A stretch of DNA of 61,030 bases, the filler included, from an uncultured bacterium (GTDB lineage: Bacteria; DAOPZR01), in assembly GCA_964637655.1 (NCBI GenBank). It is 3 parts of 3 records of this genome, joined end to end, with 100 filler letters (N's around TTAATTAATTAA, not from the genome) between each part and the next. Parts side by side here need not be neighbours in the genome. Positions count along the whole stretch, not along the records: positions 1 to 20,447 come from CAZWUZ010000028.1; 2 more parts are not named here. One strand, given 5' to 3'. The notes under the pieces were generated by a model. That model did not search any database. It had not been told where the DNA came from and saw only the letters and a program-made list of their open reading frames with translations. The position numbers and the translations under genes were made by a program. Below, piece by piece: positions 15,329-40,797 of this stretch (positions are counted from its first letter, which is position 1; each line of letters begins with the position of its first letter).

Positions 15329-15358
15329 GCCGCTATGGTAGCATAGGTTGTTCAGGCG

Positions 15359-15419: not shown

Positions 15420-15422
15420 CGT

Positions 15423-15713
15423 TTATTTTCTGTGCTTCCAATAATCCGGTTCGCGATGAAGGTGCATGACGGCAAGAATAAATATTCCGTGCGGCTCAAC
15501 ACTGTATAATACGCCATATGGAAACCTGTGAACGAGGCAGCGTCTGATTTCTGGTGCGATTTCCGGCCACATTTTGGGGTAATCGAGGGAATTTTTTATG
15601 GTCGTGTAAACTTCCCGGGAGAAGTCGAGCCCGAGGCCGATTTCACATTCTTCGTAATAGGCAACGCCGGCAACAAATTATTCATCCGCTTCCGGATGAA
15701 AAGTAAAAATCAT
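15423..15713 (-). pseudogene. parE: RelE/ParE family toxin with in-frame TAA at codon 12
   Basis: MIFTFHPEADE*FVAGVAYYEECEIGLG..RRCLVHRFPYGVLY..ILAVMHLHREPDYWKHRK; stop at 15678-15680. Confidence 0.85.
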
Positions 15714-15937
15714 ACATCGAACCGCTGCCGGATTCTAGCGAAAACCTCTTCCCCTGGGATGGGGGCAACACGACCGGATCGCAGTTCGTCAAGTCTTCGT
15801 TTTGCCACCTCGGCCCATTTCTTGTCAATTTCAGGGTCAGGCGGATTCAGTGAACGCAACAGGGATTCCACTACCAAGGCCCGCTCTTCTACGGGAAGAG
15901 ACTCGGCTTCCTGAATTATTTTGGCGGTGTTCGGCAT
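15710..15937 (-). CDS. Addiction-module antitoxin
   Basis: LPVEERALVVESLLRSL..WAEVAKRRLDELRSG; SD AGGAGG; ATGA overlap with toxin. Confidence 0.85.
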   Translation of the reverse strand: MPNTAKIIQEAESLPVEERALVVESLLRSLNPPDPEIDKKWAEVAKRRLDELRSGRVAPIPGEEVFARIRQRFDV

Positions 15938-16007
15938 AATGTCCCTCCTATGTTGCAGTATAGCATATCGGTTGATATTTTGCCCGATTTAAAATCATCT
16001 CGTTCAG

Positions 16008-16067
16008 GCATAACGATGAGCGCTCTGCGGGCGCTGTTGTATGCGCCCGCAGAGCGCGAAGTTAGCA
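16008..16067 (-). repeat. attC site 2
   Basis: gcataac-gatga-perfect 15-bp stem-gaa-gttagca. Confidence 0.9.
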
Positions 16068-16085
16068 GATCTTGATCGGGGGATA

Positions 16086-16337
16086 CTAAGCAGCGCGGCG
16101 TTTCTTGCTGCGGCCATTGCCATGTTTTGCCCTGCCCGCAGAACGGGCGACTTTGATAAGTGAACGCAGAGCATTGTTGACTGCGGCTTCATCTGGAAAC
16201 ACCTCGGCCACATCAGCTCCGAGTAATACCAGGGTTGTGCCGGAAGTGTATGCCTTGTGATATTTCCCGCGTAGCCCACGACCAAGGTCATCCCGGCGAT
16301 ATTCGGCTCTCAGCCCATTTTGTTTAACCTTCTTCAT
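16086..16337 (-). CDS. BrnA-like antitoxin
   Basis: LRAEY..RGKY..LVLLGADVAEVFPDEAAVNNALRSLI; overlaps the brnT remnant. Confidence 0.75.
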   Translation of the reverse strand: MKKVKQNGLRAEYRRDDLGRGLRGKYHKAYTSGTTLVLLGADVAEVFPDEAAVNNALRSLIKVARSAGRAKHGNGRSKKRRAA

Positions 16338-16476
16338 AGATTGTCCTTTCGTTTTTGGTCGCAGTCCGCGCGCTGATGATTCGAATGACGTTCGAACGTG
16401 AGGTGTGTGCAACAACCAGCAAACGCTGATTATTGGAAAGCCCGAAAGTCAAGTATCTCGTTTCGTCCGCATGATC
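16324..16476 (-). pseudogene. brnT: 3' half of a BrnT toxin, truncated exactly at attC site 3
   Basis: DHADETRYLTFGLS..RLLVVAHT..IRIISARTATKNERTIYEEG*; no start codon; first codon GAT is the attC core. Confidence 0.85.
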
Positions 16477-16533
16477 GATGAGCGCCCTGCGGGCGCTGTT
16501 GTTTTTCGCGCCCGCTGCGGCGCGAAGTTCGGC
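16470..16533 (-). repeat. attC site 3 (R' = GATCATG, non-canonical)
   Basis: catgatc-gatga-gcgccctgcgggcgc..gcgcccgctgcggcgc-gaa-gttcggc. Confidence 0.88.
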
Positions 16534-16536
16534 TGT

Positions 16537-16764
16537 TTATGATGCCCATTTCAACTCGAGCTTCTTTTGATGAAGGGCACACTCCCGGAGGTATAGGTTG
16601 ATGAGGTTTTGATAGGGCATACCCAGTTCTGTCGCCAAGGCCTTGAAATAGCTGACTGTGTGCTTGTCTAATCGGATAGTGATCGGTTGTTTCAGCCTGA
16701 CCGCGTAAGGGTTCTTGACCCCCTTCATTTTCGCAAAATCATAGTGTTTTCTCATGGCTTTCAC
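16537..16764 (-). CDS. brnA: BrnA antitoxin
   Basis: YDF..KNPYA..KQPITIRLD..YFK..GMPYQNLINLYLR. Confidence 0.88.
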   Translation of the reverse strand: MKAMRKHYDFAKMKGVKNPYAVRLKQPITIRLDKHTVSYFKALATELGMPYQNLINLYLRECALHQKKLELKWAS

Positions 16765-17045
16765 CTCCAGTAGTTTTCAGCTTCTTGTTTGTCGGCTTTT
16801 CTGGCCGAGATAAGTCGAATAACCGAGTCGTTTTCACGGTAGCAATGGCAGACAACCAGCACGCGTAATTTGAAACTCAATCCGAGCATGATGAATCTCG
16901 CCTCATCTTCCGAATGGTCTGGGTCGAAATAGCGGATCGCCTTTTCATCGAAAAACACAGCTTGCGCCTCTTCAAAGGACACTCCATGCTTCTTTCGATT
17001 GGATTTGTTCTTGTTTTCGTCCCAGGCGAAGGTGATCTTGTTCAT
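16761..17045 (-). CDS. brnT: BrnT toxin
   Basis: FAWDENKNKSNRKKHGVSFEEA..DPDHSEDEARF..IRLISARKA. Confidence 0.92.
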   Translation of the reverse strand: MNKITFAWDENKNKSNRKKHGVSFEEAQAVFFDEKAIRYFDPDHSEDEARFIMLGLSFKLRVLVVCHCYRENDSVIRLISARKADKQEAENYWR

Positions 17046-17051
17046 GCGTAT

Positions 17052-17080
17052 ATTATACAATATTATATGTACATTGTCAA
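17052..17080 (-). promoter_or_regulatory. Perfect-consensus leaderless promoter of the brnTA cassette
   Basis: TTGACA-17-TATAAT-6-ATG. Confidence 0.85.
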
Positions 17081-17093
17081 TATCTATCTATCA

Positions 17094-17154
17094 GCCGAAC
17101 GATTAGCGCCCTGCGGGCGCGGTTATCTGCGCCCGCTGCCGCGCGAAGTTGGCC
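17094..17154 (-). repeat. attC site 4
   Basis: gccgaac-gatta-gcgccctgcgggcgc..gcgcccgctgccgcgc-gaa-gttggcc. Confidence 0.9.
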
Positions 17155-17178
17155 ATAGAACTAATTTCAGGCGTGCTG

Positions 17179-17589
17179 CTATTTCCAGGGATTGATGACT
17201 TCAAGGCCGGGAAAGCGAAAATCTTTCTCGTTTCGGGTCACAAGGCGGAGTCCTCGTTCAAGCGCGGTCGCCGCTAAGAGGCTGTCAATCGCCGGCACCG
17301 AACGGCCAACCTCAGCCAACAACCGACCCCACCGTTCTGCAATTGCGGCATCAACAGGAATCAAGCGGTGTTCAAACCAGGAAGTGAGCTCGGTTTCAAG
17401 CCAGAGACGCAACTGTTCCCGCTTTGGTCCCTCCGGCAACAATTCAACTCCGCGTCGAATCTCGCCAAGCGCGATAACGCTCAAATAGAGCGAACCGGAC
17501 GGCACCGCATCAAGCCATCTACTGACTGCCGCCGCGGGTCGCGCTTTGGCTGCTTCGGAAATGATATTGGTGTCGAGAAGATAACTCAC
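17179..17589 (-). CDS. vapC: VapC PIN-domain toxin
   Basis: YLLDTNIISE, GEIRRG, DSLLAATA, VTRNEKDF. Confidence 0.93.
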   Translation of the reverse strand: MSYLLDTNIISEAAKARPAAAVSRWLDAVPSGSLYLSVIALGEIRRGVELLPEGPKREQLRLWLETELTSWFEHRLIPVDAAIAERWGRLLAEVGRSVPAIDSLLAATALERGLRLVTRNEKDFRFPGLEVINPWK

Positions 17590-17947: not shown

Positions 17948-18009
17948 GGCTAACCGATTAGCGCTCTGGGCGCCGCTGTTGGGCGGCGTCCAGAAGCGCG
18001 AAGTTAGCC
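17948..18009 (-). repeat. attC site 5
   Basis: ggctaac-cgatta-gcgctctgggcgccgc..gcggcgtccagaagcgc-gaa-gttagcc. Confidence 0.88.
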
Positions 18010-18707: not shown

Positions 18708-18772
18708 AGGCTACGATTAGCGCTCTGCGTTGAGCTGCGCCAGCGGCGAAGCGCAGAAGCGCGAAGTTCGCC
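18708..18772 (-). repeat. attC site 6 (R' reads GTA)
   Basis: ggctac-gatta-gcgctctgcgtt..aagcgcagaagcgc-gaa-gttcgcc. Confidence 0.88.
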
Positions 18773-38563: not shown

Positions 38564-38617
38564 ACGATGAGCGTTCAGCGGGCTGTTTTCCGCGCCCGCT
38601 GCCGCGCGAAGTTCGCA
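38559..38617 (-). repeat. attC site 8 (distal; R' overlaps the stop codon of the chromosomal GT gene)
   Basis: gatgaac-gatga-gcgttcagcgggc..gcccgctgccgcgc-gaa-gttcgca. Confidence 0.85.
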
Positions 38618-38619
38618 GG

Positions 38620-38909
38620 TTATTGTTTTTCCAATAATTCGGATTGCGGTGCAGATGCATGACCGCAATGATGACGATCTTTCCTGGTCGTTTGCGGAAC
38701 AGGACGCCGAAAGGAAATGTTTATGTGAGACAGCGGCGTACATCAAGCTCGACAATTTGATACAGGTTGGGGTTTAGAAAAATGCGATTGACTGCGTCTT
38801 GCACTGACATTAGAAAGCGTTTGCCGAGACCAGCTTGCTGCCCTTCATAATACTTGGCGGCTGCCTTTAGTTCGGAATCAGCAGCCGGGTGAAACCTGAC
38901 GATTTTCAT
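38620..38909 (-). pseudogene. parE: RelE/ParE family toxin with in-frame TAA
   Basis: MKIVRFHPAADSEL..RRCLT*TFPFGVLF..IIAVMHLHRNPNYWK; stop at 38721-38723; homologous to 15423-15713; 3' end approximate. Confidence 0.82.
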
Positions 38910-40684: not shown

Positions 40685-40745
40685 CCACAACGATGAGCGC
40701 CCCGCGGGCGCTGCCGTCTGCGCCCGCTGCGGCGCGAAGTTGGCA
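40685..40745 (-). repeat. attC site 10
   Basis: ccacaac-gatga-gcgccccgcgggcgc..gcgcccgctgcggcgc-gaa-gttggca; body differs from attC1 at 2 positions. Confidence 0.9.
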
Positions 40746-40797
40746 GATCTTGATCGGGGGATACTAAGCAGCGCGGCGTTTCTTGCTGCGGCCATTG
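40743..40797. repeat. 55-bp exact copy of 16065-16119 (3' end of the BrnA-like cassette)
   Basis: gcagatcttgatcgggggatactaagcagcgcggcgtttcttgctgcggccattg at both positions. Confidence 0.95.

Follow-up and report, generated by a model that had tools for sequence, protein, structure and literature searches.

Gene content of the locus

A 5'-truncated brnT toxin gene and an intact antitoxin gene share one cassette of an attC array, and the truncated gene directly abuts attC3, the recombination site of an upstream cassette that carries a complete brnT-brnA pair. The locus lies in a window (the whole 61 kb stretch of DNA that was analysed) consisting of three contigs of one MAG, spaced by N/TTAATTAATTAA. 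This MAG (G000) has 485 contigs and a completeness of 90.55%. Two of the three contigs, C28 and C29, pass from GC-rich chromosome (~0.70) into a lower-GC cassette array (~0.50) that continues up to the contig end. Toxin-antitoxin (TA) cassettes in the window include brnTA, vapBC-like (PIN and Phd) and ParE-type pairs. The contigs and the features of the locus are as follows:

1-20447: contig C28
20548-40797: contig C29
40898-61030: contig C30
16008..16067, minus strand: attC2, belonging to the truncated cassette itself; R'' TGCTAAC at 16067->16061
16086..16337, minus strand: intact antitoxin ORF of 83 aa, its start overlapping the brnT stop
16324..16476, minus strand: 5'-truncated brnT, codons 40-89 and stop
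16475..16476, minus strand: junction; G 16476 is common to attC and target, A 16475 belongs to brnT only
16470..16533, minus strand: attC3, recombination site of the upstream intact brnT-brnA cassette
16476->16470, minus strand: hybrid R' core of attC3, GATCATG, not GTT-type
16533->16527, minus strand: R'' of attC3, GCCGAAC
16537..17080, minus strand: upstream intact cassette (promoter, brnT, brnA)
16764->16537, minus strand: intact brnA, Pfam BrnA_antitoxin
17060/17045->16761, minus strand: intact brnT, Pfam BrnT_toxin 1-77 of 77, E 4.9e-30
17080->17052, minus strand: promoter of the intact cassette, sigma-70 match 12/12
17094..17154, minus strand: attC4, whose R' GTTCGGC opens the intact brnTA cassette
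40732..40797, minus strand: end of C29, a second context of the truncated cassette's 3' end, with a different attC (40690-40741)

Comparison within the same family was made with a single genome, G001; the remaining relatives share the domain at closest. When the cassette DNA was searched in 61 genomes, it matched its own genome alone. Most of the window stretch is contained in four runs of one study (labelled as wastewater metagenome). Logan contigs were compared from X1 and X2, which belong to the wastewater study, and from X5 and X6, which come from two other studies and whose contigs cover 15900-17200 in part.

The truncated toxin gene and its antitoxin

Translation of the minus strand from 16476 gives DHADETRYLTFGLS...IYEEG* (DHADETRY...IYEEG-stop), within which an internal TTG at 16452 opens a 42-aa ORF. 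The remnant matches positions 38-77 of the 77 positions of Pfam BrnT_toxin (PF04365; E 2.5e-13); its score of 50.6 bits exceeds the gathering cut-off of 34.5, yet this partial profile coverage marks it as a fragment and not a whole member. Compared with P0001, a full-length BrnT of 89 aa, the remnant is identical at 49 of 50 positions (98%), beginning from Asp40-His41, and the P0001 residues ahead of the match (..TFDDP) have no counterpart in the window. Alignment of P0001 with 7vd7_A, a solved toxin chain, runs from end to end, and what is left therefore corresponds to 56% of one small domain. No sigma-70-like site was found on the minus strand from 16476 to 16337. The sequence-only reading had stated that the promoter and the 5' half of the toxin were gone and that the antitoxin was intact; the loss and the open antitoxin frame agree with this, but the missing portion (39 of 89 codons, or 44%) is slightly under half.

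The 83-aa antitoxin is identical to P0136 at 82 of 83 positions. It has no Pfam match even at E 10 (BrnA PF14384 and CopG PF12441 included) and no NCBIfam match. Full-length brnT lies immediately upstream in 50 of 80 loci with antitoxin relatives, and from this position we take the 83-aa ORF to be the predicted cognate antitoxin of brnT. The locus resembles the BrnT/BrnA family (PF04365/PF14384) in the match of its remnant to the C-terminal half of the BrnT profile, and departs from it in that residues 40-89 alone are left and the partner antitoxin fits neither BrnA, CopG nor any other model.

P0001 and P0136 are each found on a single 1544-bp contig. The window's two differences from these proteins map to SNPs that the runs also show, with T35N resulting from 16234 in all four runs and K84 from 16343 in X2. 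These matches suggest that an intact brnT-antitoxin pair, approximately 99% identical, probably exists. A metagenome scan with P0001 returned 80 loci, the best 76% identical; the contig of P0001 itself was not among them. The sequence-only reading would be in difficulty if full-length homologues had no GAT at the breakpoint, and such a GAT is common in them. In the 80 full-length homologues (64-76% identical), codon 40 is GAT in 42 and GAC in 29, with the hexamer GATCAT in 34. The 12 closest homologues all have GAT at codon 40, and codon 39 in the closest homologues is CCC or CCT.

The junction between attC3 and brnT

On the plus strand, positions 16470-16481 read CATGATC|GATGAG, in a place where NNNNAAC is found in the array's other attC sites; the plus-strand attC consensus in the MAG is NNNNAAC-GAT(G/T)AG ... 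CGAAGTT-NNNN. When five window sites were aligned with two from G001, the 3' arm proved invariant through G16476, and the base that follows is T in six of the seven sites and A in attC3 alone. This alignment bears out the earlier description of the minus-strand core as GATCATG and not GTTRRRY. It also places the junction at the attC3 core, as had been proposed, with attC homology stopping and BrnT homology starting at G16476. The onset of BrnT homology coincides with the junction in such a way that GAT corresponds to D40 of P0001.

With the exception of its R' triplet GAT, attC3 has the features by which attC sites are defined (inverse cores RYYYAAC ... GTTRRRY and a single-strand fold). It is an imperfect palindrome that folds at -19.2 kcal/mol (plus strand) or -18.2 kcal/mol (minus strand), with z ~ -3. 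Its R'' (GCCGAAC) is complementary at all seven positions to the start of its own cassette (GTTCGGC), and nothing in the site has been replaced except six bases 3' of the G. The break thus separates the R' G, to the nucleotide, from the base after it and leaves the rest of the attC intact, as expected of an attC x attG product. By hand estimate, the probability that the five bases after G would fit GAY-CAY in frame is ~1/256. The target G of GAT is deduced from Asp40 of P0001 and from the homologues, while AT itself is present in the window; similarly, the deleted segment and the parental codons 39-40 are predicted from the protein.

The sequence common to both sides of the break amounts to 1 nt, or 2 at most. 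This is compatible with an integrase-independent deletion (for example by slippage during replication, or by illegitimate recombination, at the foot of the attC hairpin) whose left end reached the R' G by chance and which was kept since loss of the toxin was harmless or useful. We regard this explanation as unlikely, though it deserves serious attention. The left end of the deletion coincides to the base with the integrase crossover point, with the attC and the R'' pairing untouched. As a rough estimate, a left end placed at random (within ~150 nt) would fall here in ~2% of cases and a random target would be G-W-T in ~3%.

Assignment of the top strand and integrase genes

The minus strand is the top strand of the array, which puts the break at the integrase crossover point G|N. 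The sequence-only reading came to the same strand by arguing that the junction fixes it; the assignment stands, but that argument is circular and the evidence has to come from elsewhere. First, contig C115 of G001 carries an intI gene, with its start at ~5390 on the plus strand, and three minus-strand ORFs to its left:

5182->4646, minus strand: cassette ORF diverging from intI
4624->4163, minus strand: cassette ORF diverging from intI
4044->3628, minus strand: cassette ORF diverging from intI

At least the first two of these ORFs are each followed by the same type of attC (plus strand AAC-GATTAG). As this divergent layout is canonical, the ORF-sense strand is the top strand. Second, the longest ORF lies on the corresponding (minus-type) strand in 20 of the 23 bounded cassettes of the MAG; the other three are TA cassettes, and in these too the genes recognised by Pfam or as ParE-like lie on the top strand. 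Third, the plus strand folds more stably in all three attCs that were folded, and in the one D3-type attC folded, the plus strand shows GAA in the loop and a bulge of one base in the arm that faces AAC. In the available excerpt of Nivina et al. (2016), the bottom strand is described as having extrahelical bases opposite AAC, being purine-rich and forming the more stable fold; the stability and bulge placement seen here fit that description and support the minus strand as top.

The opposite assignment, with the plus strand as top, was also considered. It had been suggested by the asymmetry of the spacers beside AAC (5 nt versus 3 nt), but this asymmetry lies in the unpaired central spacer and is non-diagnostic. 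Two further hints were the boundary of the C28/C29 duplicate (where sequence is shared only from plus-strand G|TT rightwards) and contig C446, which has an intI C-terminus, hicAB and an attC in the plus sense. The layout of G001 C115, the ORF tally, the D3-type bulge and the Nivina criteria overrule this assignment. In C446 (160-930), the attC is 700 bp downstream of the intI stop with hicAB between them, in a sense that suits an inverted-intI integron; this contig conflicts with the G001 layout unless it is the end of another array.

A search of the MAG for complete intI (TIGR02249) returned none above the cut-off. What was found were C-terminal matches only, of 52-67 residues, at the starts of three contigs (L163-L165):

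C215:1-200, C168:1-227 and C446:1-165: intI fragments, three different C-terminal fragments

That no complete intI was found, in a MAG of this completeness and contig number, favours a deletion made without integrase. A TTCGGCATAAT-rich repeat shared by two of the three fragments precedes the intI sequence, directly ahead of the RHSFATH motif; an Rfam search of the three contigs gave no family. One possibility is that a mobile element entered several intI copies at one site; another is a break in the assembly. In G001, the intI of C115 (L174, 5390-6035) has an internal deletion, its N-terminal 50 residues running into model positions 153-314, and a second, complete intI (378 bits) is encoded on C280.

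attC cores across the genome

A pattern search of the MAG gave at least 37 attC matches, which represent 36 distinct sites. Without exception the 37 have AAC/GTT on the R'' side, and variation in the core triplet is confined to the R' side, where the triplet is GTT in 28 matches, GTA in five, GTC in one and GAT in one; of the remaining two, one site has an extra base and the other is a nested artefact. Four of the five GTA sites are the last attC detected before a flank of 0.59-0.70 GC, and the fifth, an internal site, is explained by a 1-nt deletion. Beyond the GTC site no further attC was detected on the contig, and the flank there has a GC content of 0.50.

For 23 cassettes bounded by two detected attCs, the 5' core was scored against the cassette's own R'' (one row arising from a nested match was dropped as an artefact). 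Complementarity was 7/7 in 15 cassettes, 6/7 in three and 5/7 in one; the resulting 18 of 23 cassettes at six or seven positions, together with cassette spacing, identify the region as an attC array. A score of 4/7 was obtained for one 1.9-kb interval that may contain an undetected attC, and scores of 3/7 for two cassettes are both accounted for by 1-nt indels. The attC at 17949-18009 has an extra base in its R' core and the attC at 18708-18772 lacks a T there; each matches its cassette's R'' once the indel is allowed. The cassette with the truncated brnT scored 2/7 (core GATCATG against R'' TGCTAAC) and is the only one of the 23 with a truly non-complementary core, in agreement with the earlier statement that this core does not pair with the cassette's R''. 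The original 5' core of this cassette, as predicted from the R'' of attC2, was GTTAGCA.

These counts bear on a further explanation, that an ordinary GTT-type core underwent a later T->A mutation, with brnT starting at CAT or further in and the Asp codon being coincidental. Small lesions do occur in other attC cores (the 1-nt deletion at 18708 and the extra base at 17949), and GTA is present at five sites. For the window junction, the additional change would have to recreate the conserved in-frame Asp of the DPDH motif; the letters TCATG would still be brnT and non-complementary to R'', and the junction would still be within 1-2 nt of the crossover. We therefore consider a later point mutation very improbable.

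In at least 10 contigs of the MAG (C28, C29, C5, C59, C74, C87, C107, C170, C221, C271 and C280), an attC array abuts DNA of higher GC content, which is presumably chromosomal. The terminal R' triplets in some of these arrays are GTA and not GTT. This suggests that the 4-Mb genome has many integrase-less arrays, or that cassettes were inserted at genomic secondary sites.

Support from metagenome contigs and a second copy

The junction was found in contigs assembled per run from two runs. Record 1 of X1 (947 bp) covers 15900-16717 with one mismatch, and record 10 of X2 (581 bp) covers 16054-16557 with five mismatches; both bridge 16476, with at least 54 bases on each side. As both runs come from a single study, and the source sample may be among them, this support is independent of the assembler and not of the data. 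The support across 16476 that the sequence-only reading called for is thus available at the level of contigs. A chimera formed at a repeated attC in a fragmented MAG could be suspected because the window consists of three spacer-joined contigs, the cassette is repeated and C29 ends inside it. The bridging X1 and X2 records speak against such a chimera, and the boundary of brnT and attC is a unique word that a graph misjoin inside the attC could not be expected to create; we find a chimeric origin scarcely credible.

The end of C29 is identical to 16054-16119 at 65 of 66 bases (40732..40797), and a full-length brnT was anticipated in the copy continuing beyond 40797. X2 record 10 contradicts this. 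The record begins with C29-type attC letters and has G at 16064 as in C29, and its order is C29-type attC, antitoxin, truncated brnT, the same junction and attC3. The copy in the C29 context is therefore equally truncated and hides no full-length gene, and the junction is older than the split of the two contexts. The block consisting of the brnA 3' end, attC3, truncated brnT and antitoxin is found with two downstream attCs, attC2 in C28 and X1 and another in C29 and X2. Between 40690-40797 and 16008-16119, homology breaks at the R'' AAC and not at the R' G|TT, the canonical exchange point; gene conversion or a rare top-strand exchange is possible. The attCs look mosaic, with attC1 made of parts of both downstream attC types.

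Record 18 of X5 is 97.5% identical to the window over 16187-16470. On its top strand, a canonical 7-nt core is followed by one further base and then by brnT from codon Ala42. As this core is complementary to the R'' of the truncated cassette at six of seven positions, the original 5' end looks to have been kept. Its junction looks like an internal deletion 5-7 nt away from that of the window and off the crossover point. Such a nearly identical deletion, with a left end 7 nt inside the cassette, indicates that almost the same loss of toxin is possible without the crossover-point signature, and it is the weightiest argument against an integrase origin of the window junction. The two truncations may have arrived within 6 nt of each other by separate routes, or the region may be a hot spot. 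Convergence would perhaps follow from a need to preserve TTG at 16452 together with the coupling to the antitoxin. In X5 and X6, the cassette with truncated brnT and antitoxin comes last, the flank is homologous to 15330-15358 and the 15420-16007 cassette is absent; this terminal junction (left of 16013) has six extra bases relative to the attC1 junction of the window.

Toxin decay in the arrays and in the family

Other toxin genes in the same arrays are also disabled. Two ParE-like toxins (15420-15722 and 38617-38909, both minus strand), each downstream of an intact antitoxin, are interrupted by an in-frame TAA stop, one after FHPEADE and the other after VRRCLT. Loss of toxin here therefore has several routes, a point in favour of integrase-independent deletion at brnT.

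Decay of the toxin with the antitoxin kept is common in the family outside visible attC sites (L003, L005, L032, L054, L071 and C347), and these truncated or frameshifted brnT genes beside intact antitoxins likewise favour a deletion that needed no integrase. The brnT genes of L032, L054 and L071 are frameshifted. In L003 and L005 (2170-2530 in each), the antitoxin's two closest genomic relatives, the upstream brnT is reduced to its final 5-14 codons. Orphan members of this antitoxin family are thus found repeatedly, in other phyla as well. In C347 (2604-2720), a 5'-truncated brnT (residues 51-89 relative to P0001) is followed by a short ORF, in GC-rich DNA with no attC nearby.

Proposed mechanism

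Taking these observations together, the best explanation of the junction is an IntI-mediated exchange between attC3 and a GAT site that removed the promoter and brnT codons 1-39. We consider this probable, and place it ahead of a deletion made without integrase. The older secondary-site consensus is GWTMW, which GATCA would fit. That integron integrases use secondary sites of the GWT type, which the sequence-only reading had given as known, is documented in the excerpted text of three studies. Loot et al. (10.1101/2022.09.11.507474) give GWT, cut after the G, as the attG consensus and describe recombination of a double-stranded attG with a folded attC. In Souque et al. (2023, PMC10127599), cleavage at G|AT occurs at a secondary site on an evolved plasmid. 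In Frumerie et al. (2010, PMC2811028), GAT is a preferred secondary site, with identity needed at G alone and the second base tolerant. Integrase cleavage is described in the corresponding passages as occurring between A and C opposite GTT (Nivina 2016; Frumerie 2010, PMC2811028). A target triplet that is itself a documented secondary site, as GAT is in these excerpts, is not anticipated by integrase-independent deletion. The excerpt of Loot et al. also describes a CRGM motif at positions 6-9 of attG hot spots; at the brnT site this motif is one base off position and is not counted as support.

The folded attC3 bottom strand would have recombined with a double-stranded attG-like site, G|ATCA, formed by brnT codons Asp40-His41 in the next cassette downstream. 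In the simplest topology, both sites would have been on one molecule and the outcome an intramolecular deletion, which would take out brnT codons 1-39 together with the promoter and the 5' core (GTTAGCA, as predicted above) of that next cassette. Having no attC, the excised circle would be lost. What would remain is attC3 ending in G, the letters AT-CAT, the last 50 codons of brnT and the intact antitoxin. Lacking a promoter of its own, this remnant lies downstream of the intact, strongly promoted brnTA operon; it is presumably non-toxic, and the antitoxin is presumably still expressed. A comparable outcome is known from the excerpt of Loot et al. (10.1101/2022.09.11.507474), in which excision outside the insertion point deletes adjoining genome DNA.

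Two other routes could give the same junction: cassettes may have been inserted into brnT and the 5' half lost afterwards, or the truncated cassette may have been excised and re-inserted. A tblastn search of the MAG with P0001 found no N-terminal half of brnT elsewhere, which leaves the insertion route unsupported and adds nothing to the deletion route either. We infer a deletion rather than an insertion or re-insertion, with the integrase as the likely maker of the junction. On this last point the sequence-only reading, which described an integrase event at a non-att site, is upheld as to the junction at the crossover point and a GAT triplet known as a secondary site, while the part played by the integrase is still a matter of interpretation. 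What the data themselves show is the junction, its position on attC and BrnT, its presence in two runs and the strand assignment.

Comparison with known systems and implications

The proposed event resembles the attC x attG recombination described in the excerpts of Loot et al. and Frumerie et al. in its G-W-T partner, in the cut after G and in the order of a whole attC followed by target sequence. Those excerpts concern assays of IntI1-3 in E. coli and a few plasmid cases. The window differs from them in presenting a putative natural event in a chromosomal array of an uncultured lineage, with a gene of the neighbouring cassette as the target and a MAG without complete intI. Plasmid R388 offers a second comparison, since there too a junction was read for an integrase signature and the cut in GAT was G|A (Souque et al. 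2023, PMC10127599, in the part available). According to the same excerpt, the R388 rearrangement was an off-target product of IntI1 that disrupted costly genes and was adaptive; it involved inversions between two double-stranded secondary sites in laboratory evolution, with an integrase-deletion control. The window junction, unlike that of R388, is of the deletion type, involves a true attC and is natural, with no such control.

TA cassettes with their own promoters stabilise sedentary chromosomal integrons such as the Vibrio cholerae superintegron. The arrays studied here are similar to such superintegrons in carrying TA pairs as cassettes in long arrays, and differ from them in that three of the five toxins in view are disabled with their antitoxins intact, one of them carrying an integrase-type junction. 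Recombination of attG by integron integrases is well shown in the laboratory. To our knowledge, natural attG footprints are few and mostly on resistance plasmids. The mechanism is thus already known and it is the setting that is unusual.

A more speculative proposal is that integrases repeatedly act off target at GATCAT, the conserved hexamer for Asp-His in the DPDH motif of BrnT, and that through this hot spot arrays could strip TA toxins and give rise to promoterless orphan antitoxins acting as anti-addiction modules. We hold this to be doubtful. If it were true, the truncations in the window and in X5, which lie within 6 nt of each other in two unrelated studies, would be the first traces of this hot spot.

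If the junction was made by an integrase, it is a footprint of that enzyme in an environmental chromosomal array, and off-target activity would edit the content of cassettes beyond moving them. The toxin of an addiction module would then be removable with its antidote kept, which bears both on the stabilisation of such arrays and on escape from it.
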